A DNA stretch of 64,000 nt from contig JAHDYR010000041.1 in the NCBI GenBank assembly GCA_019828565.1, positions 37,615 to 101,614 of the forward strand, given 5' to 3'. The position numbers were made by a program, and so were the translations under genes. Below are positions 35,236 to 57,951 of this stretch, in pieces. How positions within the stretch are numbered: position 1 is the stretch's first letter; the number at the start of each line of letters is the position of its first letter. This DNA comes from Carpediemonas membranifera BICM (Eukaryota > Protista > Fornicata). Under the pieces are notes generated by a model, which saw only the letters and a list, made by a program, of their open reading frames with translations, was not told where the DNA came from and searched no databases.

Positions 35236-35343
35236 TGTCGCAATACCGTATTAATATTTATATATTGTATGGGTGTCGTCTTGGTCCTACTTGGTCCGAG
35301 ACGACACCAGTGTGTCGAAATAAATTAGCGCATCGTTACAACA
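35236..35343 (+). repeat. Element B 5' LTR
   Basis: tgtcgcaatacc..ttacaaca; identical to 60756-60863. Confidence 0.95.
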
Positions 35344-35363
35344 GTGAATTCACTAGTGGCTAC

Positions 35364-38300
35364 ATGTTCGGTAATATTTCTCTGCCGACTCTGAGCGTTG
35401 AGACATTGACTAGCGAAACCTGGCGCTCATCTAAGAGGGATGCCGCCCGAATCAAGGCGTTGTATCCCGCCGCCAAGCTGGCTGTCCTCCTCCCCAATGA
35501 CCTGCAGGACATCATCGAGGACACTCTCAACGTAGACCTGGCGAAGGCAAATGACGACAAGATTGACGAATACGTCAGCAAGTTCCTTGCTCCGGTGGAC
35601 AAATTGTCCCTTGTCAAAGAGCTCGAGGCCTTCACCTGCCAGGTATCTGAAAAAAGAATCACCTCCATTCGCGCGTACGTCAGCGCGTTCTCAGCAGTTT
35701 TCTCTAAGGCCGAAGACATCGAAGAGTCCGACTCGGACGAGGACGAAGAGGAACAAGAAGAGGACGAAGAAGACATTTCCCCCTTTGAGAAGAACGCGCG
35801 TAAGATCTTCCTTCAGGGGATCCGCCCATCCACTTTCCGCAAGGTCCTGGACTTTGAACTCAAGGAGCATCCTAAGAGGAAGTCACTTGCCGATGCATAC
35901 GAGCTGAGCATTGCCCTCGCTCAAGAAGATGACGACGCTCGGGCTAAGGCCATTCGCTTTGGTCACTACCAGGCCGGAAAGTCCTCCACCCGAAAGAAAG
36001 GAACGGCCGCAGGAGGCCAACCGCCTCGCCTCCCGGTCCCGGGCGCAGTTGCCTCAGGGGCCCCGGAGAATTCTTCCACTCTCGAAAAGAAAGAAAGAAA
36101 GAAATTTATGGTGCTTGGATTCTGACCCCGGACTGAGCTTGTTTCCCGTTGTCTTGGAGCTGAGTGCCCCGGGGTACTGCCTATTTCCCGTGGCAAACTG
36201 GTCAGCAGCGTTTGCCTTGGGCTTTCGGTGCTACTGTCTCCGCGGAAAGCCGATTCCAATCGCCCCAGAGGCCCTGCGGCCATCTCCGTGCAAATATGCT
36301 TTCCTGTCTCCCTGAAAGTCCGGCAACTATCCGGGGAGCCTGGGGGTCTGTCCTCGGTGCTTCCACAGGCAGGATCGTCCTGCAGAACCTTGGGTGGCGT
36401 GGGTCAGGGCATGGGTGGTGTACCCCCAGGCACTAGGCCTGGTTGTCCTGTTACCCCTTACAACATTTCGCTTGCACTACATGTCCTTGGTTTCCCATGT
36501 CGTTAACAAGGGCGGCAGGGGCACCAAGTCTTCCACTCTCAAGCCGAACGACGTCAACCCAGCTTTGAAGCCTCCACATCGTGCCTGTGGCAAGTGCGGC
36601 GGATGGCATTGGGATAATCAGTGCCCCAATGGGGCCCCAATGCGCTCTCGCCAAGAAGGAGGCGGCCTCCGGTCCAACCCGAAGAAGAAGGAGCCAATCG
36701 AGGCTAATCTCCTGGACACGGACCCGATGAGCCACTCAAAGTGTCTGGTCGTATAAACGACCAAGAGTATTCCTTTATTATTGACACTGGAGCACCAAAA
36801 TCTATCATCTCCGCTGCGTCAGCAGAGGCCCTTGGCCTACAGACAGTGACCGGCCCGACCCTCCGCTTCAGAATGGCGAACGGTTCCATTTCGACAACTA
36901 ACCACTATACTGAGGCCTGGTTACACCTCACGCTGGCGGGAGCCCCAACGCGGTTTAAGGCGAAGTTCGCAATCTTCAGTGGGGACCGCGAGAAAATCCT
37001 TATTGGCACCGACATTCTTCGTGTACTCGGGCTTCTCACGAAGGATTCCTTATTCCTCCAGCTCGTAGCCGAAAATCTGAGCAAGGAGGACGGGGACGAC
37101 ATTCCGCTGAGTTTGAACCAGTTAGACGTCTCGGAGGACGTTGGTGCTGTTGAAATTCCCGAATCCGCGAGCGCCACGCTCCGAAGCGAGGTACGAGCGC
37201 TACTTGCTGAGTATTCCACGTTGTTCGGCCCCATTCCGGCTCAAGGAGCCAAGGTTGAACCTATGCGGATCCGATTGAATGACCCGGACGCCCTGGTCCA
37301 GGAACGAGCCCGGAGACTATCAGGGGAACGACGCCTTCAGGTGCGGGAAGAAGTAACCCGCCTACGCCACCTTGGCATCACCAGGAACAGCGTCGGACCG
37401 TTCTCCTCCCCGATCGTGGTAGTGGATAAGAAGAACGGCGCCATACGCCTCTGTGTGGACTACAAAGCTCAACACCCTCACCATTCGTGACCATTTTCCC
37501 CTTCCCGACTTGAAAACCTTCGTGCAGGAGGCGGCGGGGGCTCAATTCTTCGCCAGCTTGGACTTGACGTCCGGGTACCATCAGATGCCCCTCCTCGAGG
37601 AAGACAGAACTATGACGGCGTTTGTAACACCTGACGACTACGAGGAGTTCAACCGAGTCCCATTCGGGCTGACTAACGCTCCGAGTTATTTCCAGCGTAC
37701 CATGCAATCCATCCTCGCCCCGGTACTCCACCGGGGGGTGCTGGTCTATATTGACGACATCTTAGTCTACGCCCAATCTGAGGAGGAACTTATAGCACGC
37801 TTAGAGCAAACCTTCCAGTTGCTGACAAAGTATGACCTTCGGCTTAGCCCGGCAAAATGTGTGATCGGCGCGGAGGAGTTAGACATCGTGGGCTTCCACC
37901 TTTCCCGCGAGGGGAAGAGCATCGACAAGCGACGGATTGAAGCACTCACGTCGATAGAGGCTCCGAGCAATGTTTCAGGGGTCAGAACACTCTTAGGGAT
38001 GTTTAATTACGTGATCGACTTCATCCCAGCCGCGGCGGACCTTGTGGACCCCCTCTATGAGCTGATCAGGAACGCCGGTGAGCCATTCGTATGGGGACCA
38101 CGCCAAGAGGAAGCCCTCGTGGCCCTGAGAGAGGCGGTAGCCCAAGAGACCGTCCTGGATCAGCCTGATCCCAGCCTGCCATGGGACGTTTACACTGACG
38201 CAAGCGACCGGGGGCTTGGGGCCGTAATCACCAGGGAGAGGGCGCGAATCGCCGCCTGGTCGCCTTCGTTTCGAAATTATTTAACGCGACGCAGAGGCGC

Positions 38301-39922
38301 TGGGCCACCTACGACAAGGAGCTGTACGCAATCCTTCATACCCTCACCCGGCCTGACTTGAGTCCTCTACTCAAGATGGTTAACTCGCTCACTATCCACA
38401 CAGACCACCGGAATATTGTGTACCTCATGCGCCGCTCCCTCGTATCCCCCAAGGTGATGCGCTGGCGGATTGCTTTGCAAGAATTCAATTTCAACATTGC
38501 CCACATATCAGGCGAGCATAATGTGGTCGCCGACGCTCTTCACGGCCAGAATCGTCGACTAAGACTGTGAACAGTGCCGAGATCGTACCATCGGAGGAGG
38601 AGAAGCTGCGCATACTTCAAGATCTGCATGAGGGCGCCAATGGCCACCCCAAGGCAGTACGCCTTACGACTCTTGCGATGGAGGCGGGTCATGTTTGGCC
38701 CGACGTCTCGGCACTCGCCAAGCGGGTAGTCAAGCAGTGCTTGACATGCCAGAAGTTGCGCGCACACAAGCGAACGCCCCCGGCGAAGAACAGCACACAC
38801 CGGTACACGCCCTTTGAATGCGTCCAAGTCGACACTCTCTCCCTGGGGGCTAGCGGTGAGTACAAGGGCGTCTTGGTCTTCACAGATGTCTTCACGAAAT
38901 GCGTGGTACTGAAGCCGGTGAGATCAACCACGGCCGCCGAGACAGCCCAAGCAATGCTGGAAGTCTGGGCCCTATTTGGGAAACCAGCGCTACTTCAAAC
39001 TGATGGCGGACCGGAATTTAGGAACCAAGTGGACGCTGAAGTCAACCGGATCCTCTCCCTCAAGCATCGTTACTCGACCCCACATCACCCAGCCTCCAAC
39101 GGAATTGTTGAACGCACGAATGGAAAAGTCCTTCGTCTGTTGCGGGGTTTACTATTTGACAGCCAGGACTATGACTGGGTTCCTTTCCTCCCTTTAGTGC
39201 AGTACATCATTAATACACGGCCAACACGGGCCACGGGGCAAGCCCCCTTACGCCTAGTGACAGGCAATTCGGGATCCGACTCCGAGCAGTTTTCAGTCGC
39301 GCAATACGAGCGGGCGTGGGCCCTATTTAAGGAAATGTCGGCGGGCCAAGCCGATTGCCTGAAGGCGTTCCGCGACGCCCTTAATACCCGCCGTCTGCAA
39401 GCCAAGGCTCATCTCCAACGGTATAGCGAACGAAACAAGAGCGGCGAGGACAGCGACACACCTCCGAGCTTCCCGGATGGCTCCTTCGCACTCCTCCGCT
39501 ACGTTGGCAGAGCTCCCAAGCTGCTCACCAGCCTCCGGGGCCCGATGAAGGTTGTACGAGCCGGCGAATCGCCCGCTACGCACGTGGTTCGCGACATAGT
39601 GTCGCTGGCAGAGGTCCTGGTCAGCGATGAGCGACTCATTCCTGTCGAGACGCCAGAGGACGAGCAAGCCCTGATCGCTAGACTTGCCGCCGAGTGCGGT
39701 GAGTACGTGGTCGACAATGTCTACAAGCACAGGGTCTCAAACAAGGGGTCCAAGGTCGAATTCAAAGTCCACTGGCTGGGCTACGAGCCGAGCGAAGACT
39801 CTTGGATTAGTTTTACCAGAGACACCGACCAGCTGGAGGCCCTAGACCAATATTTGCGCGAGAACCCTGCACTAGAGCCGACTCTGGCTCGTATTCGTCG
39901 CAGGTGGCGGGCCCGGTCCTAG
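35364..39922 (+). pseudogene. Element B gag-pol with integrase chromodomain (interrupted and frameshifted)
   Basis: CGKCGGWHWDNQC, IIDTGA, YIDD, YTDAS, QTDGG..ERTN, EYVVDNVYKHR..FKVHWLGYEPSEDSW. Confidence 0.95.
36084..36528 (-). mobile_element. 5'-truncated non-LTR insertion with (TTTC)n tail
   Basis: 12-bp TSD tcttccactctc (36072-36083, 36529-36540); homologous to about 59845-60429; removing it restores the gag frame. Confidence 0.92.
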
Positions 39923-40017: not shown

Positions 40018-40243
40018 TGTTACACCTCTTTTGCGGGGAATTTCGGTCCAAACCTCCCCAGTTAATCGATAGTCGATTGATTCCAAATTTTTGCGCATTG
40101 CGGGGGAACCAATGCCCGTGAGAACCTAGTGCTACAGCAGTACAATCACCTTTATATATCTCCCCATTTCCCTCGGGTTCAGCTCTCGTTGCGATCATCT
40201 CCAGTCCACCAATGTTTTCAGCTAAGTGTTCTCACTTACAACA
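40018..40243 (+). repeat. Possible LTR of another family
   Basis: tgtta..ttacaaca ends and a TATA-like tttatata; shares tctcgttgcgatcatct with about 60428; no TSD. Confidence 0.4.
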
Positions 40244-40908
40244 GGGGTGGATGAAGACCAACAGGCCTGTACTAGAATAGATAGAACAGTGCCCCATCGA
40301 GCTCAAAAGGAGCGACTATGGCCCCTGTCCAACGAACCAGAAGGTTACATTCAGGGTGCACCGCCGGTTATGAGTGGGAGCTCCATAGCCACAGGGACTA
40401 GAGAACGAACAATATGGAGCTTAGATTTACAGGGAAAGAGACGGAGAGCGCAGGGAAGGATGTCGGAGCATCGATGGAATGGAATTTTCGCCAGCTCAGA
40501 GGGAAGGAAGGATCACCGGCGAACAACAGCAGGGGGCCCAGATAGAGGCCGCGAACACACTACGAATGGCGTAACAACGGCCAAAAATCCAGGGACGGTG
40601 TGGCATGAAAATGGCGATGCATTTTTAGAACCGCGCCATTCCGCCGCGAGCCCCAAAACAAACGATCAGGGAAAAATGAGAAAACAGGGAGGTCCGTGCG
40701 GGGACAGTACCTGCGCAGGGCCATGCTGACCGATTTTCGCGTCGATGCATTTGCCAAGCTTTTTTCATGCAGGGAAAAGAGAACAACCAGATGAGAGTGG
40801 AGATACCAGATAAGATCAGGGAATCCGCTCAAAAAGAGTGGGACACGATTAGAGAGCTACTAACGGACTACTTGATGGAAGAGAAGGGCACCAGAACGCT
40901 ACTACTGC
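40244..40908 (+). mobile_element. 5' region of the non-LTR element, cut by an element A LTR
   Basis: About 40327-40908 is near-identical to about 55454-56033. Confidence 0.92.
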
Positions 40909-41029
40909 TGTCGTGGGTCTTACCCAATATTTACATAGTTGTATTATTTACATCGTCTTCAGGTTTCTGTCGACACATTTGGTGTCGTCTCTTTTCCCTG
41001 TAAAGCTTTCTTGTCCCTAACGGACTACA
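40909..41029 (+). repeat. Element A LTR 1
   Basis: tgtcgtggg..ggactaca. Confidence 0.95.
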
Positions 41030-41047
41030 TTTCTAGAAATTCAAGCC

Positions 41048-44000
41048 ATGAACGATAAGAAACGCCTTATACCTCCTCTACTAACGGTTCCGTCAGTTGA
41101 GGCTCTCATCACTTTCGCCGAGGCCTTCCGCGACTATCGCGCTTACGGAGGCCATCGGGATATCTCAGACTTGATTGATAGCTCGGTACAAGACCTCATT
41201 GCCACGATCCTATCCACTACGCAGGACGAAGACGACGATCACACTCCCCTAGTAGCCTCAAGGAAGAACATCCGCGATCTGAAGGATCAGAGAACTCTCA
41301 AGCGGCTCGGACAAGCCCTGCAACCCAGAACCAAGACCTCACGCCTCCAGCTGTTCCGTCTAAGAGCCAACAGCTTCGACACGGTACAGGTCGCACGCGT
41401 CAATCGGAAGTTCACTCTCCTCTTGTCCCTGTTCGATGGGAAGTCCCTCAACGAGGACAACCTCAAGGAGGCGTATACGCGTGCCTTTAAGAGCAACCCC
41501 AAGGCCATGTACCGCATCCAAGAGCTCATCGAGGACCAGCCTCTGGAAAAGGCTATGCCCGCCGTCCTAGCCCTAGCACGTGAAGTCCAAGAGTCACGGG
41601 ATCTACTAAGCGCTTTCGAAGACGCTCCCTCTCGTCAACCCTACACGTCCCGCCATGACCGCAGACACGACTCGTCTGTGATCCCGAAGAAGCCCTCGTC
41701 CGATAACCGGTCGGCTGAAACCAACAAGGGCCACAAGGCAATCAAGAAGGAGAAGCCGGCAAAGGACTACTCTAACTACACCTGCTATAACTGCGGTGGC
41801 AAGGGTCACTCGGTGTTCAAGTGTAAGAAGCCCAAGCACACATGTAAGAAGTGTGGTCGTGTCGGCCACCTGGAGGATTACTGTAAATCCTCCAAGTGCG
41901 TGTGTGTTTTAAGTTCCAAGGAGTCACCGGCCGAGGGCGAACCGTCAAAGACTAAGGGCGAGACCGAGACTAAGCCATCTGTTCCCTTGATCAAAGTCCA
42001 GATTAATGGTCACAACCTCACTGCTCTACTTGATTCAGGTGCCGGAGTCACGATCATCAAGAGCACGTGGGCGTCCAAGCTTGACAAAAGTTAGCTCCGA
42101 GGTTATTCCGATCCGTACCGCCAACAAGGGTATTCTTCACGCGCAAGGCGCTGTTGAAGGCGACGTAAGACTGCTAGCGTCAGCGTTTACACCCAAGGCG
42201 TGCTCCTACAAGCCACGTATGCTGCTACTTGACACTGAGTTCGACATGATTATCGGATATCCAGACATGGTAGCACTGGGAATCCTTCCCCAAGCCTACA
42301 CAGACGAGCAAGATGATGACGAGATCGAGATTCCGGACGTGTACAAGTATCAGGCACCATTGTTTTCTTTGTCGCAGACCAGCATCGACCGGCAGGCCGA
42401 GCTAATCAGACGTTATAGCGACGTGTTCGAGGACCGTAGCGAACCCAGCCGCCTCGAGCCGTATGACCTCATCCTACGCGAGGACCGAGTGGTCAACGCC
42501 AGACCATACTTCGTCCCACCAGCCAAGGTCGACATAATACGGGAGCACATCGACGAGCTGTCCTTGAAGGGGTTTATCGAGAGAAGCAACTCACCGTACG
42601 CATCCCCGGCCATGACGGTGCCGAAGAAGGGCGGGAAGTCGCGCTTCGTCGTGGATTTCCGGCAGATCAACGAGATCACCCCCACTTTCGACTACCCGAT
42701 CCCAATGATCGACGAGGTGATCGCCCAACTACCCAACAAGAAGATCTTCGCCACACTAGACCTGTCGTCGGGTTATCACCAGGTCGAACTGACCAAACGC
42801 TGCCGCAAGTACACTGCGTTCACCACCATTCTAGGTCAATATCAATACACTAGGATGCCCTTCGGGCTAAGGAACGCAGGAGCTCACTTTCAGCGTGCCA
42901 TGGAGTCGGCTTTCGCCGAACTGGTTGGTCACGCCTGTTATATCTATATCGACGATATCATTGTCTTCGGGGAAAACGAGGAGGATTACCTCAAGAACCT
43001 GGAGAGCGTGCTGCAGCGTACTAGACAGATCAAGTTACAACTCAACCGTGACAAGTGCCAGTTTTCGAGGGCCGAGGTCGAGTTCCTGGGCAGGGTCATA
43101 TCCCATGGCTGTCAACGCATCGCAGCGGACCGCATTCAAGACATCCTGGATCTCGAAATGCCTAAGTCGGTCAAGGGAATGCAAGCGCTCGTCGGATTTC
43201 TTAACTATTTCCGGGATCATGTCCCTGGTTTCGCAGAAGTAGTACACCCCTTAACTCAAGCGATGGCCTCCAAGATCCCGCTGGGTGGCGACGAGCAAGA
43301 GCAAGCCCTACGCAAAGTCAAGACACTCCTCGCCCAAGCAGAAGCACTCGCCATCTTCGATGCGTCCAAGGAACACACCATCATGACCGACGCGTCAGGG
43401 AGTTGGCTACGGCGCTGTGCTATTGCAGGAAGGCCAACCCGTGTGCTTTATGAGCAAGGCCTTTGACCAAGTGCAATCGCGATGGTCGGTCGGAGAGAAG
43501 GAGGCATTCGCCATCGTCGCCGCCATTAAGCGATGGAACAAGTACCTCTCCTGGGGAAAGTTCACCCTTCTCACGGACCATCGCAACCTGATTTACATGT
43601 ACAAGTCGACTAACGCCAAGGTCCGCAGATGGGCTGAGGCTATGTCCGACATGGACTTCGACGTCAAGCACGTCGCTGGCCTTGATAACGGTGGGGCAGA
43701 CGGCTTATCGCGAGTGTACGTTATGCAGTCCGCATCAGAAGATGACGTTGAAGCAGAACACCTCACCGCCGGGGCCCACCTCTCCCGACGTGTAGTTACT
43801 GAACGACTCAAGGACCAAGGCAAGTCAGTATCACGTGAGACTGTCAGCAAGGTCATCGAAAACTGCCCGGTGTGCCAGGTGATTAGACGCCCTCCGGTTG
43901 ACAGCCCGTCAGGATTGCACACAGCCGTAGATCGCCCGTTCCGTAGGGTGGCAGTTGACACGATGGGGCCTTTCCCCTCCGTCGACGGCAAGGCTTACAT

Positions 44001-45000
44001 CACAGTCATGATCGACATGTGCAGTCGGTGGACTGAGCTAGTCGCATCTTCGAGTACCACCGGCGCGGCAGCAGCGGACGCCCTGGTCAACAACTGGATA
44101 TTGCGTTTCGGGTGCCCTGAGGTTCTCCAATCCGACGGAGGACCAGAGTTCAAGAACCAACTCTTCAAGCGCATCGCAGATGAGATGGGGTTCAAGATCC
44201 ATATTACCACGGCTCACCACCCGCAATCCAATGGGATGGTAGAGCGCGCCAACCAGCAAGTATTACGCATCCTCAAGGCGCGTAAGTTTCAGCTCAGAGG
44301 GTCAACCTGGATCGAGAATCTACCTGTCGCCCAGTTCATCGTTAATTCATCCCCGCGCACGTCTACACGCCTGTCACCAGCCGAGATAGTTCTCGGGTAC
44401 GACCTGAGAATACCACAGAACGTGTATGTGACTGATTCTAGTACAGCGAGCGCGAGTGAGTCTCACAGGGAAGCGGCCGCAGCGGCTGTCCAACTCGCCA
44501 GCAGCCGAGTCCAGGCGATGAGAGAGGACGCCCTCGCAAAGGCTACTGCCTCGAGGAATGAGATTATTAGCAGGTTCGTCCTAGTCAAGTACCCCTCTAG
44601 ACCACCGAACAAGTTGTCACCTGGATGGAGAGGGCCAATGCGAAGGCTCGCCGGAGTGAAACAACACGGTGTCGTTGTCGCGTATAAGGTTTTAGACCTA
44701 GCTGAGAAGGACAACTCGAAAGCGATCACGGTAGACGCATCGAGAGTTCGGAAGTTCAATCCCGGCAGGCTGACAGAAGATCAGATCAAAGCACTCGCAG
44801 CCACGGCTGACGACGAGTGGGAAGTTGAGCGAATCAGTCGATCTCGAGGTCGAGGCCCGATGTCCAAGCGGGAATACCTCGTCCATTGGGCTGGGTGCGA
44901 AGACGAAGAGGCTACGTGGCAAGACTATTCGTCAGTCAAGGACCTAGAGGCGCTAGACATATTCCTGAAGTCAGACGAGGCCAAGCGAGCCGGTCTGTAA
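41048..45000 (+). pseudogene. Element A gag-pol copy 1 (two +1 indels relative to copy 2)
   Basis: Extra T near 42082 and extra G near 43400. Confidence 0.93.
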
Positions 45001-45033
45001 ACCTTCAGCAGCTACTCAATCCAAACCTTTATC

Positions 45034-46281
45034 TCACTCCAAAACACCCCCGCTGAGAGCACCGTTCGCGTCCTCAGACCGGGTACAATAGCGAACTAGC
45101 TCGGGATGAGCAGCAAAGAACTTGACCCCAGCCTGACTATCACGGATTGCCTCGGTTGCCAGGATAATCGAGCTGTACTCGCGTCGAGCATAGTGCACGA
45201 GCAGACGCAGGGAATTCTCATGCAGATGGTGGCCAACGATTGTCTCAAGCACATACACACGACGTGGCTCGTTATGATCGAGCGCGACGGGCAGGACGTC
45301 ATTGCTGGGGACATCGAACAGGAAGTTGTCCATCAAAGAGTGGCGCACATGACCGAAACCAGTGGGGGTCCGGATTGCTTCAATGTATTGGCGGCTGAAC
45401 TCTCGCACGTCAGCAGCGTCTAGGATGCCCTGCGCATGGCCCACGACCATCATGTCATACAGGTCTGGGTCATTACCTAACATTATGGCGCGGCGCAGAT
45501 GAGGGGTCATGACGGTGTAACCACGCCCCGAGAGAAGCTGAATACGCTCGCGCAAACCCTGATGACAGAGCGTACGCGAGGTCGCGTCGAGGCGGCAGAG
45601 GTGCAAAGCCACCAGATCCTGATCGGTGGGATCGCCAGGCCGACCACACATAGCCCGAGTGTGGTACTCGCGCGATAGCGCCAGCAACACGAGACCATCG
45701 CGACAGATGTCACGCGCAACGGAAGAAGAGTTCTCCGTTGCGGCGAGATGCCCATATGAGTTGAGCATCCCGGCACGGAGCGCCCGCAAGGTACCAGACA
45801 TGTCTAGAGTGATGTAACTCACGCCCTCTGCGGCAACAGCGGTGATCATCTCCTCCAGAGAGAAGAGCGGCGAGACCTCGGTTTCCTCACTCCCCGACCC
45901 CGAGTCGCCGTGACCCGTCGGCCGGGATTCATCATCGCTACGAGCGGTCTCGGCCTCGCACGAGTCACCACGGTTCTCACGTGGAGAGCCAGCATCACAA
46001 CTCACCGTCTCAGCCTCCTCCGGGCTTTCGTCACCGCCCGGCGTCGGCGAACGCACACAAGAAGTGACCGGAGCACTCGTAACGCTCTCAGTAGAGGTGT
46101 CCCGGATAGATGTCACGTTTGTAGGAGCAGGTGCGCTGAACAAAGCGTGGTAGTCGCTGGCTGAGTTGAAAAAACGGGCACGATCGAGATAGCGGTTCAA
46201 GAAGCGTTTGAAGGCCTTTCGGGCTTTCTCCTCATCAAATAGCGCCAGCATCTGCGTAATCTGCTCACGTACGTCGGACAT
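45034..46281 (-). CDS. Element A antisense ORF with C-terminal chromodomain-like module, copy 1
   Basis: About 415-aa open frame between pol and the PPT; VYVLETIVGHHLHENSLRLLVHY. Confidence 0.75.
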   Translation of the reverse strand: MSDVREQITQMLALFDEEKARKAFKRFLNRYLDRARFFNSASDYHALFSAPAPTNVTSIRDTSTESVTSAPVTSCVRSPTPGGDESPEEAETVSCDAGSPRENRGDSCEAETARSDDESRPTGHGDSGSGSEETEVSPLFSLEEMITAVAAEGVSYITLDMSGTLRALRAGMLNSYGHLAATENSSSVARDICRDGLVLLALSREYHTRAMCGRPGDPTDQDLVALHLCRLDATSRTLCHQGLRERIQLLSGRGYTVMTPHLRRAIMLGNDPDLYDMMVVGHAQGILDAADVREFSRQYIEAIRTPTGFGHVRHSLMDNFLFDVPSNDVLPVALDHNEPRRVYVLETIVGHHLHENSLRLLVHYARREYSSIILATEAIRDSQAGVKFFAAHPELVRYCTRSEDANGALSGGVLE

Positions 46282-46931
46282 TGCTCGTTCGTCACTTCCC
46301 GTTTTCACTGAGAAAACAACAACTCGAAAGAAGTAGCAACCAACCTCAATGGAACCTGAAAGACACTGTTTTACGGCTAATTCAAGCCCGATTGATGTTA
46401 TTAAGGATGAACGCGGCCTTTTGCAGCCGCGAGAGAGAACGTCGCACCGTCGAGAGCAAAAAACGCGAGAACTCGCGAACGAAGCCGAATTGAGGCTTCT
46501 AATGACGTTTTTCGATCTCTATGTAATAAGGACGGCGACGTGAAGTACATACCAAGAGAAACACAAAGATCATCACAGTGAGCAGTTTTAGGCGCTCATT
46601 TGATCTAATCAATATTCAAACGGCCGTTTTACGACCGTGGAGGGGCGGAATGCCTCACGTAAGATCATTCTAATTACACAGCGCGCTAACAAGTGGTACC
46701 ACGATAGGATTTTGAGATCCGCAGATATTTTCCGAATCTTTCAGATTCACCCCGCTAATTCTGGCTCCCGACTTGAACAAGGCATTCACCCTGTACCCTG
46801 CCATGGTACAGAGTCTCGTAGACCAATGAGTGGCATCGGAGGTCTCGGGACTGGTCAAGTCCCTCATCGCACATTCGTTCGAGTGGCATACGCCTGAGGC
46901 CATGGCCCCTTTGGGGTCCATGGAGGGGCGG

Positions 46932-47052
46932 TGTCGTGGGTCTTACCCAATATTTACATAGTTGTATTATTTACATCGTCTTCAGGTTTCTGTCGACACA
47001 TTTGGTGTCGTCTCTTTTCCCTGTAAAGCTTTCTTGTCCCTAACGGACTACA
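46932..47052 (+). repeat. Element A shared middle LTR
   Basis: Identical to 40909-41029; preceded by the PPT. Confidence 0.95.
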
Positions 47053-47070
47053 TTTCTAGAAATTCAAGCC

Positions 47071-50000
47071 ATGAACGATAAGAAACGCCTTATACCTCCT
47101 CTACTAACGGTTCCGTCAGTTGAGGCTCTCATCACTTTCGCCGAGGCCTTCCGCGACTATCGCGCTTACGGAGGCCATCGGGATATCTCAGACTTGATTG
47201 ATAGCTCGGTACAAGACCTCATTGCCACGATCCTATCCACTACGCAGGACGAAGACGACGATCACACTCCCCTAGTAGCCTCAAGGAAGAACATCCGCGA
47301 TCTGAAGGATCAGAGAACTCTCAAGCGGCTCGGACAAGCCCTGCAACCCAGAACCAAGACCTCACGCCTCCAGCTGTTCCGTCTAAGAGCCAACAGCTTC
47401 GACACGGTACAGGTCGCACGCGTCAATCGGAAGTTCACTCTCCTCTTGTCCCTGTTCGATGGGAAGTCCCTCAACGAGGACAACCTCAAGGAGGCGTATA
47501 CGCGTGCCTTTAAGAGCAACCCCAAGGCCATGTACCGCATCCAAGAGCTCATCGAGGACCAGCCTCTGGAAAAGGCTATGCCCGCCGTCCTAGCCCTAGC
47601 ACGTGAAGTCCAAGAGTCACGGGATCTACTAAGCGCTTTCGAAGACGCTCCCTCTCGTCAACCCTACACGTCCCGCCATGACCGCAGACACGACTCGTCT
47701 GTGATCCCGAAGAAGCCCTCGTCCGATAACCGGTCGGCTGAAACCAACAAGGGCCACAAGGCAATCAAGAAGGAGAAGCCGGCAAAGGACTACTCTAACT
47801 ACACCTGCTATAACTGCGGTGGCAAGGGTCACTCGGTGTTCAAGTGTAAGAAGCCCAAGCACACATGTAAGAAGTGTGGTCGTGTCGGCCACCTGGAGGA
47901 TTACTGTAAATCCTCCAAGTGCGTGTGTGTTTTAAGTTCCAAGGAGTCACCGGCCGAGGGCGAACCGTCAAAGACTAAGGGCGAGACCGAGACTAAGCCA
48001 TCTGTTCCCTTGATCAAAGTCCAGATTAATGGTCACAACCTCACTGCTCTACTTGATTCAGGTGCCGGAGTCACGATCATCAAGAGCACGTGGGCGTCCA
48101 AGCTGACAAAAGTTAGCTCCGAGGTTATTCCGATCCGTACCGCCAACAAGGGTATTCTTCACGCGCAAGGCGCTGTTGAAGGCGACGTAAGACTGCTAGC
48201 GTCAGCGTTTACACCCAAGGCGTGCTCCTACAAGCCACGTATGCTGCTACTTGACACTGAGTTCGACATGATTATCGGATATCCAGACATGGTAGCACTG
48301 GGAATCCTTCCCCAAGCCTACACAGACGAGCAAGATGATGACGAGATCGAGATTCCGGACGTGTACAAGTATCAGGCACCATTGTTTTCTTTGTCGCAGA
48401 CCAGCATCGACCGGCAGGCCGAGCTAATCAGACGTTATAGCGACGTGTTCGAGGACCGTAGCGAACCCAGCCGCCTCGAGCCGTATGACCTCATCCTACG
48501 CGAGGACCGAGTGGTCAACGCCAGACCATACTTCGTCCCACCAGCCAAGGTCGACATAATACGGGAGCACATCGACGAGCTGTCCTTGAAGGGGTTTATC
48601 GAGAGAAGCAACTCACCGTACGCATCCCCGGCCATGACGGTGCCGAAGAAGGGCGGGAAGTCGCGCTTCGTCGTGGATTTCCGGCAGATCAACGAGATCA
48701 CCCCCACTTTCGACTACCCGATCCCAATGATCGACGAGGTGATCGCCCAACTACCCAACAAGAAGATCTTCGCCACACTAGACCTGTCGTCGGGTTATCA
48801 CCAGGTCGAACTGACCAAACGCTGCCGCAAGTACACTGCGTTCACCACCATTCTAGGTCAATATCAATACACTAGGATGCCCTTCGGGCTAAGGAACGCA
48901 GGAGCTCACTTTCAGCGTGCCATGGAGTCGGCTTTCGCCGAACTGGTTGGTCACGCCTGTTATATCTATATCGACGATATCATTGTCTTCGGGGAAAACG
49001 AGGAGGATTACCTCAAGAACCTGGAGAGCGTGCTGCAGCGTACTAGACAGATCAAGTTACAACTCAACCGTGACAAGTGCCAGTTTTCGAGGGCCGAGGT
49101 CGAGTTCCTGGGCAGGGTCATATCCCATGGCTGTCAACGCATCGCAGCGGACCGCATTCAAGACATCCTGGATCTCGAAATGCCTAAGTCGGTCAAGGGA
49201 ATGCAAGCGCTCGTCGGATTTCTTAACTATTTCCGGGATCATGTCCCTGGTTTCGCAGAAGTAGTACACCCCTTAACTCAAGCGATGGCCTCCAAGATCC
49301 CGCTGGGTGGCGACGAGCAAGAGCAAGCCCTACGCAAAGTCAAGACACTCCTCGCCCAAGCAGAAGCACTCGCCATCTTCGATGCGTCCAAGGAACACAC
49401 CATCATGACCGACGCGTCAGGAGTTGGCTACGGCGCTGTGCTATTGCAGGAAGGCCAACCCGTGTGCTTTATGAGCAAGGCCTTTGACCAAGTGCAATCG
49501 CGATGGTCGGTCGGAGAGAAGGAGGCATTCGCCATCGTCGCCGCCATTAAGCGATGGAACAAGTACCTCTCCTGGGGAAAGTTCACCCTTCTCACGGACC
49601 ATCGCAACCTGATTTACATGTACAAGTCGACTAACGCCAAGGTCCGCAGATGGGCTGAGGCTATGTCCGACATGGACTTCGACGTCAAGCACGTCGCTGG
49701 CCTTGATAACGGTGGGGCAGACGGCTTATCGCGAGTGTACGTTATGCAGTCCGCATCAGAAGATGACGTTGAAGCAGAACACCTCACCGCCGGGGCCCAC
49801 CTCTCCCGACGTGTAGTTACTGAACGACTCAAGGACCAAGGCAAGTCAGTATCACGTGAGACTGTCAGCAAGGTCATCGAAAACTGCCCGGTGTGCCAGG
49901 TGATTAGACGCCCTCCGGTTGACAGCCCGTCAGGATTGCACACAGCCGTAGATCGCCCGTTCCGTAGGGTGGCAGTTGACACGATGGGGCCTTTCCCCTC

Positions 50001-51021
50001 CGTCGACGGCAAGGCTTACATCACAGTCATGATCGACATGTGCAGTCGGTGGACTGAGCTAGTCGCATCTTCGAGTACCACCGGCGCGGCAGCAGCGGAC
50101 GCCCTGGTCAACAACTGGATATTGCGTTTCGGGTGCCCTGAGGTTCTCCAATCCGACGGAGGACCAGAGTTCAAGAACCAACTCTTCAAGCGCATCGCAG
50201 ATGAGATGGGGTTCAAGATCCATATTACCACGGCTCACCACCCGCAATCCAATGGGATGGTAGAGCGCGCCAACCAGCAAGTATTACGCATCCTCAAGGC
50301 GCGTAAGTTTCAGCTCAGAGGGTCAACCTGGATCGAGAATCTACCTGTCGCCCAGTTCATCGTTAATTCATCCCCGCGCACGTCTACACGCCTGTCACCA
50401 GCCGAGATAGTTCTCGGGTACGACCTGAGAATACCACAGAACGTGTATGTGACTGATTCTAGTACAGCGAGCGCGAGTGAGTCTCACAGGGAAGCGGCCG
50501 CAGCGGCTGTCCAACTCGCCAGCAGCCGAGTCCAGGCGATGAGAGAGGACGCCCTCGCAAAGGCTACTGCCTCGAGGAATGAGATTATTAGCAGGTTCGT
50601 CCTAGTCAAGTACCCCTCTAGACCACCGAACAAGTTGTCACCTGGATGGAGAGGGCCAATGCGAAGGCTCGCCGGAGTGAAACAACACGGTGTCGTTGTC
50701 GCGTATAAGGTTTTAGACCTAGCTGAGAAGGACAACTCGAAAGCGATCACGGTAGACGCATCGAGAGTTCGGAAGTTCAATCCCGGCAGGCTGACAGAAG
50801 ATCAGATCAAAGCACTCGCAGCCACGGCTGACGACGAGTGGGAAGTTGAGCGAATCAGTCGATCTCGAGGTCGAGGCCCGATGTCCAAGCGGGAATACCT
50901 CGTCCATTGGGCTGGGTGCGAAGACGAAGAGGCTACGTGGCAAGACTATTCGTCAGTCAAGGACCTAGAGGCGCTAGACATATTCCTGAAGTCAGACGAG
51001 GCCAAGCGAGCCGGTCTGTAA
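47071..51021 (+). CDS. Element A intact single-ORF Gag-Pol (2 CCHC, protease, RT, RNase H, integrase, chromodomain)
   Basis: 1316 aa; LLDSGA, YIDD, TDAS, HHCC, DDE, EWEVERI..EYLVHWAG..ATW. Confidence 0.98.
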   Translation: MNDKKRLIPPLLTVPSVEALITFAEAFRDYRAYGGHRDISDLIDSSVQDLIATILSTTQDEDDDHTPLVASRKNIRDLKDQRTLKRLGQALQPRTKTSRLQLFRLRANSFDTVQVARVNRKFTLLLSLFDGKSLNEDNLKEAYTRAFKSNPKAMYRIQELIEDQPLEKAMPAVLALAREVQESRDLLSAFEDAPSRQPYTSRHDRRHDSSVIPKKPSSDNRSAETNKGHKAIKKEKPAKDYSNYTCYNCGGKGHSVFKCKKPKHTCKKCGRVGHLEDYCKSSKCVCVLSSKESPAEGEPSKTKGETETKPSVPLIKVQINGHNLTALLDSGAGVTIIKSTWASKLTKVSSEVIPIRTANKGILHAQGAVEGDVRLLASAFTPKACSYKPRMLLLDTEFDMIIGYPDMVALGILPQAYTDEQDDDEIEIPDVYKYQAPLFSLSQTSIDRQAELIRRYSDVFEDRSEPSRLEPYDLILREDRVVNARPYFVPPAKVDIIREHIDELSLKGFIERSNSPYASPAMTVPKKGGKSRFVVDFRQINEITPTFDYPIPMIDEVIAQLPNKKIFATLDLSSGYHQVELTKRCRKYTAFTTILGQYQYTRMPFGLRNAGAHFQRAMESAFAELVGHACYIYIDDIIVFGENEEDYLKNLESVLQRTRQIKLQLNRDKCQFSRAEVEFLGRVISHGCQRIAADRIQDILDLEMPKSVKGMQALVGFLNYFRDHVPGFAEVVHPLTQAMASKIPLGGDEQEQALRKVKTLLAQAEALAIFDASKEHTIMTDASGVGYGAVLLQEGQPVCFMSKAFDQVQSRWSVGEKEAFAIVAAIKRWNKYLSWGKFTLLTDHRNLIYMYKSTNAKVRRWAEAMSDMDFDVKHVAGLDNGGADGLSRVYVMQSASEDDVEAEHLTAGAHLSRRVVTERLKDQGKSVSRETVSKVIENCPVCQVIRRPPVDSPSGLHTAVDRPFRRVAVDTMGPFPSVDGKAYITVMIDMCSRWTELVASSSTTGAAAADALVNNWILRFGCPEVLQSDGGPEFKNQLFKRIADEMGFKIHITTAHHPQSNGMVERANQQVLRILKARKFQLRGSTWIENLPVAQFIVNSSPRTSTRLSPAEIVLGYDLRIPQNVYVTDSSTASASESHREAAAAAVQLASSRVQAMREDALAKATASRNEIISRFVLVKYPSRPPNKLSPGWRGPMRRLAGVKQHGVVVAYKVLDLAEKDNSKAITVDASRVRKFNPGRLTEDQIKALAATADDEWEVERISRSRGRGPMSKREYLVHWAGCEDEEATWQDYSSVKDLEALDIFLKSDEAKRAGL

Positions 51022-51054
51022 ACCTTCAGCAGCTACTCAATCCAAACCTTTATC

Positions 51055-52302
51055 TCACTCCAAAACACCCCCGCTGAGAGCACCGTTCGCGTCCTCAGAC
51101 CGGGTACAATAGCGAACTAGCTCGGGATGAGCAGCAAAGAACTTGACCCCAGCCTGACTATCACGGATTGCCTCGGTTGCCAGGATAATCGAGCTGTACT
51201 CGCGTCGAGCATAGTGCACGAGCAGACGCAGGGAATTCTCATGCAGATGGTGGCCAACGATTGCCTCAAGCACATACACACGACGTGGCTCGTTATGATC
51301 GAGCGCGACGGGCAGGACGTCATTGCTGGGGACATCGAACAGGAAGTTGTCCATCAAAGAGTGGCGCACATGACCGAAACCAGTGGGGGTCCGGATTGCT
51401 TCAATGTATTGGCGGCTGAACTCTCGCACGTCAGCAGCGTCTAGGATGCCCTGCGCATGGCCCACGACCATCATGTCATACAGGTCTGGGTCATTACCTA
51501 ACATTATGGCGCGGCGCAGATGAGGGGTCATGACGGTGTAACCACGCCCCGAGAGAAGCTGAATACGCTCGCGCAAACCCTGATGACAGAGCGTACGCGA
51601 GGTCGCGTCGAGGCGGCAGAGGTGCAAAGCCACCAGATCCTGATCGGTGGGATCGCCAGGCCGACCACACATAGCCCGAGTGTGGTACTCGCGCGATAGC
51701 GCCAGCAACACGAGACCATCGCGACAGATGTCACGCGCAACGGAAGAAGAGTTCTCCGTTGCGGCGAGATGCCCATATGAGTTGAGCATCCCGGCGCGGA
51801 GCGCCCGCAAGGTACCAGACATGTCTAGAGTGATGTAACTCACGCCCTCTGCGGCAACAGCGGTGATCATCTCCTCCAGAGAGAAGAGCGGCGAGACCTC
51901 GGTTTCCTCACTCCCCGACCCCGAGTCGCCGTGACCCGTCGGCCGGGATTCATCATCGCTACGAGCGGTCTCGGCCTCGCACGAGTCACCACGGTTCTCA
52001 CGTGGAGAGCCAGCATCACAACTCACCGTCTCAGCCTCCTCCGGGCTTTCGTCACCGCCCGGCGTCGGCGAACGCACACAAGAAGTGACCGGAGCACTCG
52101 TAACGCTCTCAGTAGAGGTGTCCCGGATAGATGTCACGTTTGTAGGAGCAGGTGCGCTGAACAAAGCGTGGTAGTCGCTGGCTGAGTTGAAAAAACGGGC
52201 ACGATCGAGATAGCGGTTCAAGAAGCGTTTGAAGGCCTTTCGGGCTTTCTCCTCATCAAATAGCGCCAGCATCTGCGTAATCTGCTCACGTACGTCGGAC
52301 AT
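51055..52302 (-). CDS. Element A antisense ORF, copy 2
   Basis: Same protein as copy 1 with one T/A difference. Confidence 0.75.
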   Translation of the reverse strand: MSDVREQITQMLALFDEEKARKAFKRFLNRYLDRARFFNSASDYHALFSAPAPTNVTSIRDTSTESVTSAPVTSCVRSPTPGGDESPEEAETVSCDAGSPRENRGDSCEAETARSDDESRPTGHGDSGSGSEETEVSPLFSLEEMITAVAAEGVSYITLDMSGTLRALRAGMLNSYGHLAATENSSSVARDICRDGLVLLALSREYHTRAMCGRPGDPTDQDLVALHLCRLDATSRTLCHQGLRERIQLLSGRGYTVMTPHLRRAIMLGNDPDLYDMMVVGHAQGILDAADVREFSRQYIEAIRTPTGFGHVRHSLMDNFLFDVPSNDVLPVALDHNEPRRVYVLEAIVGHHLHENSLRLLVHYARREYSSIILATEAIRDSQAGVKFFAAHPELVRYCTRSEDANGALSGGVLE

Positions 52303-52953
52303 TGCTCGTTCGTCACTTCCCGTTTTCACTGAGAAAACAACAACTCGAAAGAAGTAGCAACCAACCTCAATGGAACCTGAAAGACACTGTTTTACGGCTA
52401 ATTCAAGCCCGATTGATGTTATTAGGGATGAACGCGGCCTTTTGCAGCCGCGAGAGAGAACGTCGCACCGTCGAGAGCAAAAAACGCGAGAACTCGCGAA
52501 CGAAGCCGAATTGAGGCTTCTAATGACGTTTTTCGATCTCTATGTAATAAGGACGGCGACGTGAAGTACATACCAAGAGAAACACAAAGATCATCACAGT
52601 GAGCAGTTTTAGGCGCTCATTTGATCTAATCAATATTCAAACGGCCGTTTTACGACCGTGGAGGGGCGGAATGCCTCACGTAAGATCATTCTAATTACAC
52701 AGCGCGCTAACAAGTGGTACCACGATAGGATTTTTGAGATCCGCAGATATTTTCCGAATCTTTCAGATTCACCCCGCTAATTCTGGCTCCCGACTTGAAC
52801 AAGGCATTCACCCTGTACCCTGCCATGGTACAGAGTCTCGTAGACCAATGAGTGGCATCGGAGGTCTCGGGACTGGTCAAGTCCCTCATCGCACATTCGT
52901 TCGAGTGGCATACGCCTGAGGCCATGGCCCCTTTGGGGTCCATGGAGGGGCGG

Positions 52954-53074
52954 TGTCGTGGGTCTTACCCAATATTTACATAGTTGTATTATTTACATCG
53001 TCTTCAGGTTTCTGTCGACACATTTGGTGTCGTCTCTTTTCCCTGTAAAGCTTTCTTGTCCCTAACGGACTACA
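52954..53074 (+). repeat. Element A LTR 3
   Basis: Identical to LTRs 1 and 2. Confidence 0.95.
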
Positions 53075-55453
53075 CCTAAGCGGGAGTTGGTGCGGCAGGA
53101 AGTCCGCCGGTTGAAGCGGGAAGGTATTATCCGAGACTGCCGTGGGCCGTGGGCAAGCCCAATAGTGGTCGCCACGAAGAAGGATGGGGCTATTCGACTC
53201 TGTGTGGACCTCACTGCGGTCAACAACGTAACCAAGCCGGACCGGTTCCCGCTGCCGGACCTACGGTCCTTCGTCCACGAGGCCGCAGGTGCTGAGTGGT
53301 TCAGCAGTATGGACCTCACTTCAGGGTACCATCAGATGAAGGTCCGGCCCGAAGACGTTTTCAAGACGGGGTTCGTCACCCCCGACGACTATTGCGAGTT
53401 TGTTCGCACGCCGTTCGGCTTGAGGAATGCTCCTGCGGTGTTCCAGCGGGAGATGCAGCGCAGCCTGGCACCAGTCTTGCACAAGGGCGCTTGCGTGTAC
53501 ATCGACGATATTCTGAACTATGCCCGGACGGCAGAGGAATACCTTGCTACACTCCGGACGGTCTTCGAGTGTTTGAGAGCGGCCAGACTAAGGCTGGCAC
53601 CCAAGAAGTGCACGTTCGGAGCCAAGAGCGTGGAAGTGGTCGGGTTCGTCATTGACGGAACCGGCAGTCGCGTGTCGGAGTCGAGGATTGCCTCGCTCAG
53701 GGCCCTAGCTAGGCCCGACAACATGACAGATCTCCGCGGCATCATTGGAAAATTCAACTATCTGGCAAGGTTCATACCGGACTGCCAGAGGGTCCTCGCC
53801 CCGCTCTACGAGATCAAGGATATGGGGCAGTGGACCGACGAGCACGACGGCATAGTACGCGAGCTCGCAGAGACGGTAGCGAACGCAGCGGCGCTTGTGT
53901 TCCCCGACCTGACAAAGCCGTGGCAGCTATACACTGATGCTTCTGACGAGGGCATCGGCGGGGTCCTGCTTCAGGGTGACCCAGGGGAAGAACAGGTAGT
54001 TGCCTTTTTCAGCAAGAAGTTCTCGGCAGTTCAAGGGCGGTGGTCGACGTATGACAAGGAACTATACGCCATTGTACACTGCGTGACACAGCCCGACCTC
54101 GCCCCGCTGTTCAAGCTACACCCAGACCTCACTGTGTGTTCCGACCACAAGAACCTACTATTCCTTCACAAGCGGAAGGACCTCAGCGCCAAGCTCGAGA
54201 GGTGGAGGATTATCCTGGGCGAGTATCCGTTCAGGCTGCGGCATGTAGCCGGGAAGGACAACGTAGTAGCGGATGCCCTATCCCGACTGCCGATGGAGAC
54301 AAACTTACTCGACCGGCAACAGATTCCTGACGACGCTCGTGCATTACTAGAGTCTCTACATGGGGGCAGTGCGGGCCACGTTCCATTGGCAGCAATGCAG
54401 GACCGGGCGGGTGATCGATGGGAGGAGATTAGACCCTTCACTCGCCAGTGGGTCGAAGAGTGCCCCATATGCCAGAAGGCACGGGAACCGGGGCGTACGA
54501 GAGTCCCCTGGCACTCCACGCAGCACAGGCAGCCATTCGAGGTGGTGCAGCTTGATACTATCGGGCCCCTCCCCCAATCACCGCACGGCAACCAGTACGT
54601 TGTCGTAGTCATTGATGCGTTCTCGAAGTACGTGGACGTCTACCCGGTGAAGAGCACCGACGCCCAGGGGGCGGCCGAGGTGGTTGCCCGCGTGTGTGGT
54701 CGATGGGGAGTACCACAGACGATCCAGACTGACCAAGGCTCGCAGTTCCGAAATGAACTCGTCAACCAAGTCACGACTCGACTGACCCTCAACCATCGAT
54801 TCTCCACCGCATATCATCCTGCTAGTAATGGCATAGTGGAGAGAGCCAATGGCACGTTGGTCCGAGCTCTACGCAAGCTGTTGTTGGAGGCGGAAGACGA
54901 CCAGTGGGAGCACTGGCTCCCCGGTCGCGCAGCTGGTGATTAACAGCGCGCCACACAGCACGCTAGGGGGCATGAGCCCACTCCAATGCCTCTTCGGCAT
55001 CTCACCCGCCGTTCTTAAGTCGGCCGAGCAGTTGGCACCGATGGCGGAGGCTGTCGGGGCCCCGGCGGATCTGGCAGAGTGGGCACGGGCTCGGCAGGGC
55101 TTCAGAGCGGCAGCGGAACAAGCGGTGGGTGAGTATGAACGCCGCCAGGCTGCGAAACAGCCGGCTGAGTCTCAGTCTAAGGTACGGACTGGCGACCTCT
55201 ATTTTGTGAGGTGGGCAACGAGACAGACGAAGTTGACTGCTAAGGCCCGTGGACCGATGCAGGCCGTCGGGCAAGGGGAAAGCCCGAACACCTGGCGCAT
55301 GAAGGACTTAATCTCGCACAAGGTGGTACTGATCCATGAGGAACGGATAAGCGTGGCTAAGGTCTCGATGGAGCAAGCGGTGCGCTTAGCGGCACGGGAT
55401 CATCAGGAATTCGTTGTCGAAAGGATCGTAGGCCACAAGCTCGGTAGTAGGAG
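53075..55453 (+). mobile_element. Ty3/gypsy element F pol fragment (RT, RNase H, integrase, start of chromodomain), related to B
   Basis: YIDD, YTDAS, QTDQG..ERAN, EFVVERIVGHK; truncated at both ends. Confidence 0.94.
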
Positions 55454-55891
55454 GTCCAACGAACCAGAAGGTTACATTCAGGGTGCACCGCCGGTTATGA
55501 GTGGGAGCTCCATAGCCACAGGGACTAGAGAACGAACAATATGGAGCTTAGATTTACAGGGAAAGAGACGGAGAGCGCAGGGAAGGATGTCGGAGCATCG
55601 ATGGAATGGAATTTTCGCCAGCTCAGAGGGAAGGAAGGATCACCGGCGAACAACAGCAGGGGCCCAGATAGAGGCCGCGAACACACTACGAATGGCGTAA
55701 CAACGGCCAAAATCCAGGGACGGTGTGGCATGAAAATGGCGATGCATTTTTAGAACCGCGCCATTCCGCCGCGAGCCCCAAAACAAACGATCAGGGAAAA
55801 ATGAGAAAACAGGGAGGTCCGTGCGGGGACAGTACCTGCGCAGGGCCATGCTGACCGATTTTCGCGTCGATGCATTTGCCAAGCTTTTTTC

Positions 55892-57951
55892 ATGCAGGGA
55901 AAAGAGAACAACCAGATGAGAGTGGAGATACCAGATAAGATCAGGGAATCCGCTCAAAAAGAGTGGGACACGATTAGAGAGCTACTAACGGACTACTTGA
56001 TGGAAGAGAAGGGCACCAGAACGCTACTACTGCGTCGCGCAGAAGATTTTTCAGGGAGATCGTTCGGAGCTAGCTCCAGAGCACGAAAAGAGGTGATACT
56101 GAATGCGAGGAGAGTGCTACGTGCCGCAGGGATCACCAACAACAGAGACGAGATCCTCCGTAACCCCAACGGAATCCTAGGGCTTCGAGACATCTTCTAC
56201 GCAATGACAGAGGCCTTAGACCCGAGAGAGGACGAAGAACGGCGCCTAGCAGAGGCCAAGGAGAACGTCACCATCCAACCAGGGCACAGGGACATGAGCA
56301 AGTGGCCTTCCGACCACAAGATCGAAGAGGCCATCCTCCAACCGAGAGAACAGAGCAACATCGAGTGGGACAGTGAGAGAGACAGCATTGAGGGCAGAGA
56401 GACGGGCACATTCACGCTCACATCAGGGTATGGAGATGAGAAAGCCGTCGAGGCAATCGCAGGAGAGGAGGTGTGGGACCCCACTAACCAGGGCCTGGTC
56501 ACCAGGATCGCTATGGAGCAGGACGATGGCACCTACAAGGTCCTCATCGACATCAGAGATTGCAGAGCATGGCAGATCACCAGATTCATGGAGGAAGGCA
56601 GGGACATCCTCAGGTTGCAGGCCCCGGAGGCGCCGGCGGTCTGGCAGGCAGCTTGGTGCAAGACAGGAGTCAACACGGAGGGCAGAGGCGCAATAAGGGC
56701 ACAAGGACAGGAGACGCCGCTCAGCAACAAGCTCGTCTTCTCTGACGTCAGGGCCAGGGTGATCAATGCCACCAGCCGCCGCCAAAAGAGGGACAGGGAA
56801 GAAGAGTCAGACAACGAGAGCGGCGCACAGACCAGCCAAGAGGAAGACCCCAAACCCAAGGTCGTGTTGACACAAGCGGAAGGAGTGAGCGCCAGAAGGG
56901 GCCTTGGAGCCGAGCTTGATCAGCAGGAAGAAGAGAGCATACCCCGAGCATCAGAGGGAAGTGCATCAGCAGGGAGCCTACCGGAGGCATTGCAGAGTCA
57001 GGGTCAGAAGAAGCTCATCCTCGGTTCTATCGACTTCGAGTGTGGAGATCCTGGGAGTGAGAGGGCAGGGATCAGTGCGGTGCCGACAGAGGGGGGCTCG
57101 TGCTAGTGGACGTCGAGACGGGGGAGGTCGTTGGCCATGGCCACGGCCTCTTCTATGAGCCCAACCTGCCGGCCAACAAGGTGGACCAGAGCAGATACGC
57201 GACGTGGGCAGTGACGGGGATTCCCCCAGCGACGTTCGTGGAAGTGGACACAGGGGAGGTGCCGATGGACTATCAGCAGCACTTCAGCAGATTTAGAGAG
57301 TGGGCCACGCGGCTCGCAGCCAAGCTGAGAGACAGAGAGACCAGGGAGAACTGGAAGCTAGTCCTTCATGCCAAGGGCGTCCACATGGAGAAGTTCCTCC
57401 TGACGAACGAGGTCAACGGGCTCAACAGGGACACCAGGGACTTCTTTAGAATGAGGCTGGTGGACGATAGCGAGCTGGCCGACGCCATCGAGGAGCTCGC
57501 CCCGGATAAGGCAAGAGAGTACAGGGCAAACTACGAGATCAAGAACTACAGGGAGATGGCAGATATATGGGCCAGCCAATGGCAGCGCAGGGAGCTCACG
57601 AAGGGGGCCTGTCCGTACCACAGGCACACTGCAGGGTGCTACCATTGTGCGCTGGCAGATGCAACGTTGTTCGCGGCGAAGGTGTGGGGCATGATGCTGA
57701 AGAAGATGAGCACGCCGGATCTGGAGAGTGCGATGGGTAACGCTTTCAACAGCATGTATGACACGGTCAGGGACGCAGGGGTATTCTTTGAGAGTGATAG
57801 TGACAGTTGTGAGTTCTTTTCTTTTAATCCAACCCTGGCTCCCACCCAGGGTCCGGCATTAGCTGAAATGCACTGCCGGTGGGCTGTGGCGGCAGCCAAA
57901 GGGGGGGTCACGCCAATGCGCCCCCTCCTAAGTATCCCTGCCCGAAGGTAA
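55892..57951 (+). CDS. Non-LTR ORF1: unknown N-terminal domain plus Maelstrom-like DEDDh nuclease (one indel in the G run near 57095)
   Basis: IDFEC..PTEGG..VTGIPP..HAKGVHME..CPYH..HCALAD; the copy near 2020 reads through this junction in frame. Confidence 0.82.

Follow-up and report, generated by a model that had tools for sequence, protein, structure and literature searches.

Two families of Ty3/gypsy retrotransposons in the window (the whole 64,000-nt stretch of DNA analysed) carry a perfect 12-nt palindrome at the edge of the 5′ LTR, in the primer-site position. Palindromes of other sequence occupy the same place in related contigs; judged by sequence comparison, the feature is real and spread across a lineage, and what selection appears to hold constant is symmetry and position, not the letters. 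The palindrome is best filed as a putative tRNA-independent primer site lying outside both the Tf1-type and the GalEa-type definitions. The chances seem about even that a deep protist lineage of Ty3/gypsy elements would use a third priming route, neither tRNA nor Tf1 fold-back, in which dimerisation and priming would be one event.

The LTR ends of both families, A and B, were set by a second LTR copy with a different flank. Family B reads AGTGAATTCACT at 35343–35354 and family A reads ATTTCTAGAAAT at 41029–41040 and 47052–47063. The initial annotation had described these as 12-nt palindromes alike in length, position and symmetry and different in letters, and this was confirmed: all three are perfect reverse complements, none extends further, and in both families the 12 nt are counted from the terminal A of the LTR. 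RT–RNase H identity between A and B is 35% and integrase identity 30%; palindrome length and register are nonetheless equal. The two copies of family A are 99.9% identical, so the window provides two independent palindrome cases, not three.

A site for a tRNA 3′ end would show TGG only a few bases away from the LTR. In neither family does such a triplet occur in the 8 nt next to the LTR end, in agreement with the earlier claim; the first TGG of family B lies at +14, and family A has none in the 40 nt past the LTR end. A site of the Tf1, sushi or Tcn1 kind would have a complement of about 10–11 nt within the LTR. Here, too, the annotation was right in seeing none: the longest Watson–Crick match of the LTR to the 21 nt that follow it is 4 nt in B and 5 nt in A, which is the level of shuffled sequences (equalled in 496/500 and 398/500 shuffles, respectively). 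When G–U pairs are allowed, the matches reach 6 nt (B) and 8 nt (A) and are equalled in 494/500 and 130/500 shuffles; the G–U-rich 8-nt pairing of the family A site with its own LTR was rejected as chance level. No complement of at least 8 nt to the 21 nt past the LTR was found elsewhere in A or B.

The domain order of both families, protease–RT–RNase H–integrase followed by a chromodomain (Pfam), is of the Ty3/gypsy type. Family B possesses TG...CA LTRs, a polypurine tract and a target-site duplication; family A possesses LTRs and a purine tract.

Table 1. Coordinates of the palindromes and of the elements that carry them.
Feature	Position	Strand	Remarks
Family B palindrome, primer-site position	35343..35354	+	duplex −15.4, hairpin −1.8 kcal/mol
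Family A palindrome, copy 1	41029..41040	+	
Family A palindrome, copy 2	47052..47063	+	duplex −11.0, hairpin 0.0 kcal/mol
Family B 5′ LTR, 108 nt, TG...CA	35236..35343	+	identical to 60756–60863; CGGT repeated at each outer flank
Family B gag, ATG 21 nt past LTR end, interrupted by insertion	35364..36083	+	
457-nt insertion in family B gag, like 3′ end of non-LTR element	36084..36540	−	12-nt duplication 36072–36083, 36529–36540
Family B pol: protease, RT, RNase H, integrase, chromodomain; broken into several frames as assembled	36708..39922	+	Pfam
Nested insertions in family B 3′ region: non-LTR element, family A array, pol fragment of third family (E)	40201..60444	+	
Degenerate tRNA-like stretch, family B 3′ untranslated region	60641..60725	−	ARAGORN, relaxed threshold only
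Family B polypurine tract	60740..60755	+	
Family B 3′ LTR	60756..60863	+	108 nt, identical to 5′ LTR
Family A LTR 1, 121 nt	40909..41029	+	
Family A LTR 2, common to both tandem copies, purine-rich tract before it	46932..47052	+	
Family A intact gag-pol frame: protease, RT, RNase H, integrase, chromodomain; ATG 19 nt past LTR	47071..51021	+	
Family A antisense open frame, 494 codons, between pol and 3′ LTR	51055..52539	−	second copy 45034–46518
Family A LTR 3 (3′ LTR); unrelated sequence after it, no palindrome	52954..53074	+	

Scans with integrase profiles gave 28 loci, six in contigs of viral collections and 22 in contigs from bacterial genome bins, where they are probably eukaryotic contaminants. 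Twenty-seven of these loci were examined, L101 being left out. Eighteen had no LTR–leader junction or were not LTR elements, and in the other nine an LTR gives way to a leader that runs towards gag, the gag start of L083 being only probable. An RT-profile scan produced 73 loci, mostly plant pararetroviruses as judged by size and likeness, of which 10 were examined together with L001; single-sequence scans for comparison material returned nothing useful. As a separate observation, loci L080–L099 are eukaryotic-type LTR retrotransposon contigs within bacterial genome bins.

The initial annotation had proposed a survey of all families of its genome for palindromes after the LTR. Among the related contigs, seven of the nine carry one of 10–14 nt, L006 does not and L084 is ambiguous. 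In L006 the palindrome is not at a CA end, and the best-scoring LTR end is without one. At offset 0 lie the palindromes of L075 and L083 (12 nt each), L092 (10 nt) and L082 (14 nt, within a 20-nt palindrome extending into the LTR end); those of L076, L077 and L078, each 12 nt long, lie at offset +2. TGG is not near the LTR end in any of the seven, and perfect LTR complements reach at most 4–7 nt in all nine palindromic elements (A, B and the seven relatives). The nine palindromes all differ in sequence and have no core word common to all. The covariation that the annotation had suggested looking for was found between L077 and L078 (78% identity in RT–RNase H), whose palindromes differ at two of 12 positions, central and partners of each other.

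Ranked by terminal inverted repeat, the LTR end came first alone among 30–40 candidates in L076–L078 and shared first place among 22 in L092; that of L082 was taken from a partial second copy and inverted ends. In L075 and L083 the end ranked only second or third by terminal inverted repeat and the palindrome helped the choice, so neither assignment was made independently of it. The LTR starts of L092 and L086 were placed by hand, and the automatic purine-tract placement is probably off in L084 and L098. The LTR of L082 (4950–5020) is 71 nt long and has a TAATG start and a CATTA end instead of TG...CA.

An outgroup check covered six loci, three of which have a clear site: L007, L072 and L073 possess an ordinary TGG site three bases past CA, with no palindrome there. 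A FastTree tree built from RT–RNase H and integrase, with L098 left out as too short, separates A, B, the Carpediemonas and Aduncisulcus proteins and the contigs from elements of plants, fish and insects (support 1.0); the inner branches are partly weak, the root is arbitrary and named Tf1 or Tcn1 sequences are not among its members.

Palindromes of 12 nt are not in themselves rare: the window has 24 of at least 12 nt, compared with about 17 expected. When the non-coding regions of L075–L078 and L083 are shuffled 200 times, CA joined to a palindrome of at least 10 nt turns up somewhere in 12–24 of the shuffles. At a fixed site, however, the probability of a 12-nt palindrome is about 2.5e-4 per family (1.5e-3 with six offsets allowed), and two independent families plus seven of nine relatives have one; coincidence as an explanation is hardly credible.

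The predicted energies of the nine palindromes are −6.8 to −15.4 kcal/mol for duplexes and 0 to −1.8 kcal/mol for hairpins, with 0.0 kcal/mol for the hairpin in seven of the nine palindromes folded alone; the weakest duplexes (−6.8 kcal/mol) belong to L075 and L083. The central four bases, which would be the free loop in a hairpin, are self-complementary in both A and B. Since symmetry through the centre is required by a two-molecule duplex and not by a hairpin, intermolecular pairing is preferred; taken together, centre symmetry and modelled folding energies favour two-molecule pairing over a hairpin. In predicted leader dimers, pairing would be mediated by the palindrome in 11 of the 12 fragments tried, with 12–17 kcal/mol gained over two monomers. 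Priming from a fold-back hairpin inside one RNA is very improbable. A 4-bp stem can be sketched from any palindrome, and that of family B is marginally stable and caps a larger predicted stem, but the zero energies of most hairpins speak against such folding. Symmetry in the loop would not be kept, yet L077 and L078 covary there, and after the cut a primer would face only four template bases.

Pairing between two element RNAs by way of the palindrome, with RNase H cutting one of them, which would then prime its partner in a Tf1-like reaction between molecules, is a reading to which we give an even chance. First, two element RNAs would anneal as RNA in the particle through the LTR-edge palindrome; then the RNase H of the element would cut one strand at the duplex edge; and finally, the freed 3′ end would start minus-strand synthesis with the partner RNA as template, the last two steps being modelled on Tf1. 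A 12-nt palindrome counted from the last A of the LTR comprises an 11-nt site at +1 to +11, with its complement at 0 to +10 of another RNA. In Tf1, an 11-base primer is freed by RNase H from an RNA duplex of 11 bp, according to PMC7175516 and PMC4600332. Tf1-like intermolecular priming is favoured because the site would have the length of that of Tf1 and the Tf1 primer is released by RNase H. The 5′ side of the primer would either be trimmed by a second cut or be given by a shorter transcript starting at the last A of the LTR. Related flagellates have short 5′ leaders, and the short distance from LTR end to gag ATG, 19 nt in A and 21 nt in B, fits the short-transcript option. In its sharpest form, the third route is proposed as a short transcript from the last A of the LTR that would give an 11-nt primer to the full-length RNA.

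The initial annotation had read the palindrome as a means of tRNA-independent priming through an intermolecular duplex or as a dimerisation signal. This reading stands in part: it agrees with the primer-site position, the non-TGG and non-Tf1 character of the site and the symmetry kept across relatives. The DNA end is defined by the 3′ end of a primer, which must therefore sit in a fixed register; no such demand falls on a dimer signal. The constancy seen here (offset 0 or +2) would thus favour priming over a pure dimerisation signal. LTR elements end either flush or with two extra bases that are trimmed by integrase, two geometries that offsets 0 and +2 match. Several points count against intermolecular priming. 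If both RNAs were cut, there would be no overlap for the second strand transfer; if one RNA were cut once, a long 5′ primer tail would be left and copied by plus-strand synthesis. Either outcome means that an extra step would be needed. The weak duplexes of L075 and L083, the length range of 10–14 nt and the exceptions L006 and L084 also tell against it.

A dimerisation or packaging signal only, with the primer binding elsewhere or through a split site, is an unlikely alternative. Self-complementary sequences mediate retroviral RNA dimerisation and have candidates in Ty1, as stated in PMC3592414; the palindrome resembles the retroviral dimer initiation site and Ty1 PAL as self-complementary 5′-leader RNA able to join genomes. 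The energy gained by predicted dimers and the place of the family B palindrome atop a larger predicted stem would suit such a signal as well. Known dimer signals, however, accompany a primer site (PMC5445492), and those of retroviruses and Ty1 reside in a hairpin loop and exist besides the tRNA site (PMC3592414), whereas the palindrome here replaces the tRNA site. No separate primer site is visible in A or B, the search for complements of at least 8 nt included. A fixed distance to the LTR end, unlike the placement of the retroviral dimer initiation site and Ty1 PAL, would also be unneeded in a pure signal.

The palindrome might instead work as DNA or as a protein site: a dimeric protein of the element or of the host might bind it (protein priming included), or it might help the second strand transfer. 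Dimeric proteins typically bind perfect palindromes. Elements without an identifiable primer do exist, namely Skipper and DGLT-A (PMC5006619) and SM-Tcn1 (PMC2864245). This explanation is nevertheless unlikely: A and B reside in one genome and their palindromes differ, the nine sites have no common core word, and priming would be left unexplained.

A further alternative takes the primer to be a fragment of a host tRNA (the anticodon-loop half known from copia, Ty5, Osser and Bianca) or a host small RNA and the symmetry to be incidental. Half-tRNA priming is known (PMC10886601 and PMC6317226), and an anticodon loop with the anticodon AGA offers a placement for the complement of the family A site. 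That placement is mismatched at the loop-closing pair, however, and family B offers no anticodon-loop placement inside the palindrome's own complement, an outcome that is unfavourable without being decisive. In the plant survey, half-tRNA priming was limited to Ty1/copia (PMC6317226). Nine different sites would demand nine primers and leave the symmetry without a reason, which makes a tRNA fragment unlikely.

Among known systems, the closest likeness is found in GalEa, a fungal Ty1/copia element in which a 9-nt sequence is palindromic together with the final A of the LTR (Donnart et al. 2017, PMC5445492). A palindrome at the last A of the LTR is hence already published and not unprecedented. 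The role of primer site has been proposed for this Conserved Hairpin Site; Donnart et al. state that no model fits. Like the elements described here, GalEa lacks a tRNA site, has a palindrome taking in the terminal A of its 5′ LTR, keeps symmetry across families and shows no LTR complement (PMC5445492). The GalEa palindrome is 10 nt long and nearly fixed in sequence, whereas those of A, B and their relatives measure 10–14 nt and are free in sequence. A complementary 9-nt hairpin partner lies 12–41 nt downstream in GalEa (PMC5445492); none, with up to one mismatch, is present within 60 nt in any of the nine palindromic elements. GalEa is also a Copia element, in contrast to A and B, which belong to Ty3/gypsy and have the integrase after RT–RNase H.

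Tf1/Tf2/Tj1, sushi and Tcn1 share with A and B the Ty3/gypsy superfamily, the lack of a tRNA primer and a short site adjacent to the LTR, according to PMC7175516, PMC4600332 and PMC6317226. The Tf1 primer, however, consists of the 11 nt that open the same RNA, an LTR complement that is absent in A, B and their relatives, and the Tf1 site is not palindromic (PMC5445492), unlike the sites of A and B. Skipper of dictyostelids is likewise a protist chromodomain Ty3/gypsy element with neither a TGG site nor an LTR complement, but has a polypyrimidine tract, not a palindrome, at that position (PMC5006619). Bivalve TRIMs are a further case without a recognisable primer (PMC6934838).

A literature search, with most subscription papers and Repbase outside its scope, found no palindromic primer site in Ty3/gypsy. 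Repbase entries reportedly record short palindromes at this position in ‘self-primed’ Gypsy families, which may reduce the novelty of the feature. Palindromes are not mentioned in PMC10886601. The priming of LTR elements with neither a tRNA site nor a Tf1-type complement is a question open in print (GalEa, Skipper, SM-Tcn1). With letters free, and symmetry and distance to the LTR end kept, this question becomes directly testable by symmetric and asymmetric swaps, for which family A is suitable, having an intact reading frame and short LTRs. If the proposed route holds, genomes would be paired and primed in a single step that needs no host tRNA and is unaffected by silencing through tRNA fragments.

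The window is eukaryotic, and its right half consists of nested retrotransposons. Element B spans 35236 to 60863 and sits within the integrase gene of another element, D. Its target-site duplication is 4 nt long (CGGT); the right end is ambiguous by one base, and the duplication can be read as 5 nt using the last A of the LTR, the 4-nt reading being preferred because of the TG...CA rule and the identical repeat. The 457-nt insertion in gag is skipped in contigs from another sequencing run; contigs of two runs cover parts of gag and pol, with the LTR junction outside. The non-LTR element in the 3′ region of B is bordered by a 16-nt duplication at 40185 and 60429 and has the A array inside it. 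Its segment at 55805–60430 shows by eye an endonuclease-like frame and a tail of TTTC repeats; no Pfam match was obtained in its three frames. Reversed pieces of the 3′ end of this element occur at 36088–36391 and 61429–61503.

The tRNA-like stretch at 60641–60725 is not found by ARAGORN at default and has no Rfam match. It contains, in antisense, a T-arm-like hairpin followed by five T's, directly before the polypurine tract, and resembles a misplaced TGG primer site on the plus strand. It is possibly a relic of a Pol III promoter or a captured piece of tRNA; as a primer donor for B it was rejected, the contiguous match never exceeding 7 nt.

The family A array consists of two tandem copies with three 121-nt LTRs between them, and the second copy has an intact gag-pol frame. 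Among named proteins, the nearest relative of its polyprotein belongs to Carpediemonas membranifera (53% over 74% of the query), and Aduncisulcus paluster ranks lower; the host is hence probably a protist similar to Carpediemonas. The array (40909–53074) is flanked by a non-LTR element on the left and by pol of another family on the right; it has no target-site duplication because its outer flanks belong to different elements. Flanks and missing duplication together suggest recombination between two separate A insertions. The antisense 494-codon frame has no Pfam match and is, by eye, weakly chromodomain-like near its end.

For the other families of the window (D, E, F and a gag-protease remnant at 3396–4793) a 5′ LTR is not visible. 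Neither a Pfam match nor an LTR was found for the remnant, in which a zinc knuckle and a protease-like motif can be seen by eye. A 382-nt repeat at 24955/27224 was considered as an LTR pair and rejected. The LTRs of A and B both start with TGTCG, the remainder being different, and both include a hairpin of GACAC, 4–5 nt and GTGTC (46995–47009 in A, 35303–35316 in B); the family B LTR also has a perfect 10-bp inverted repeat.
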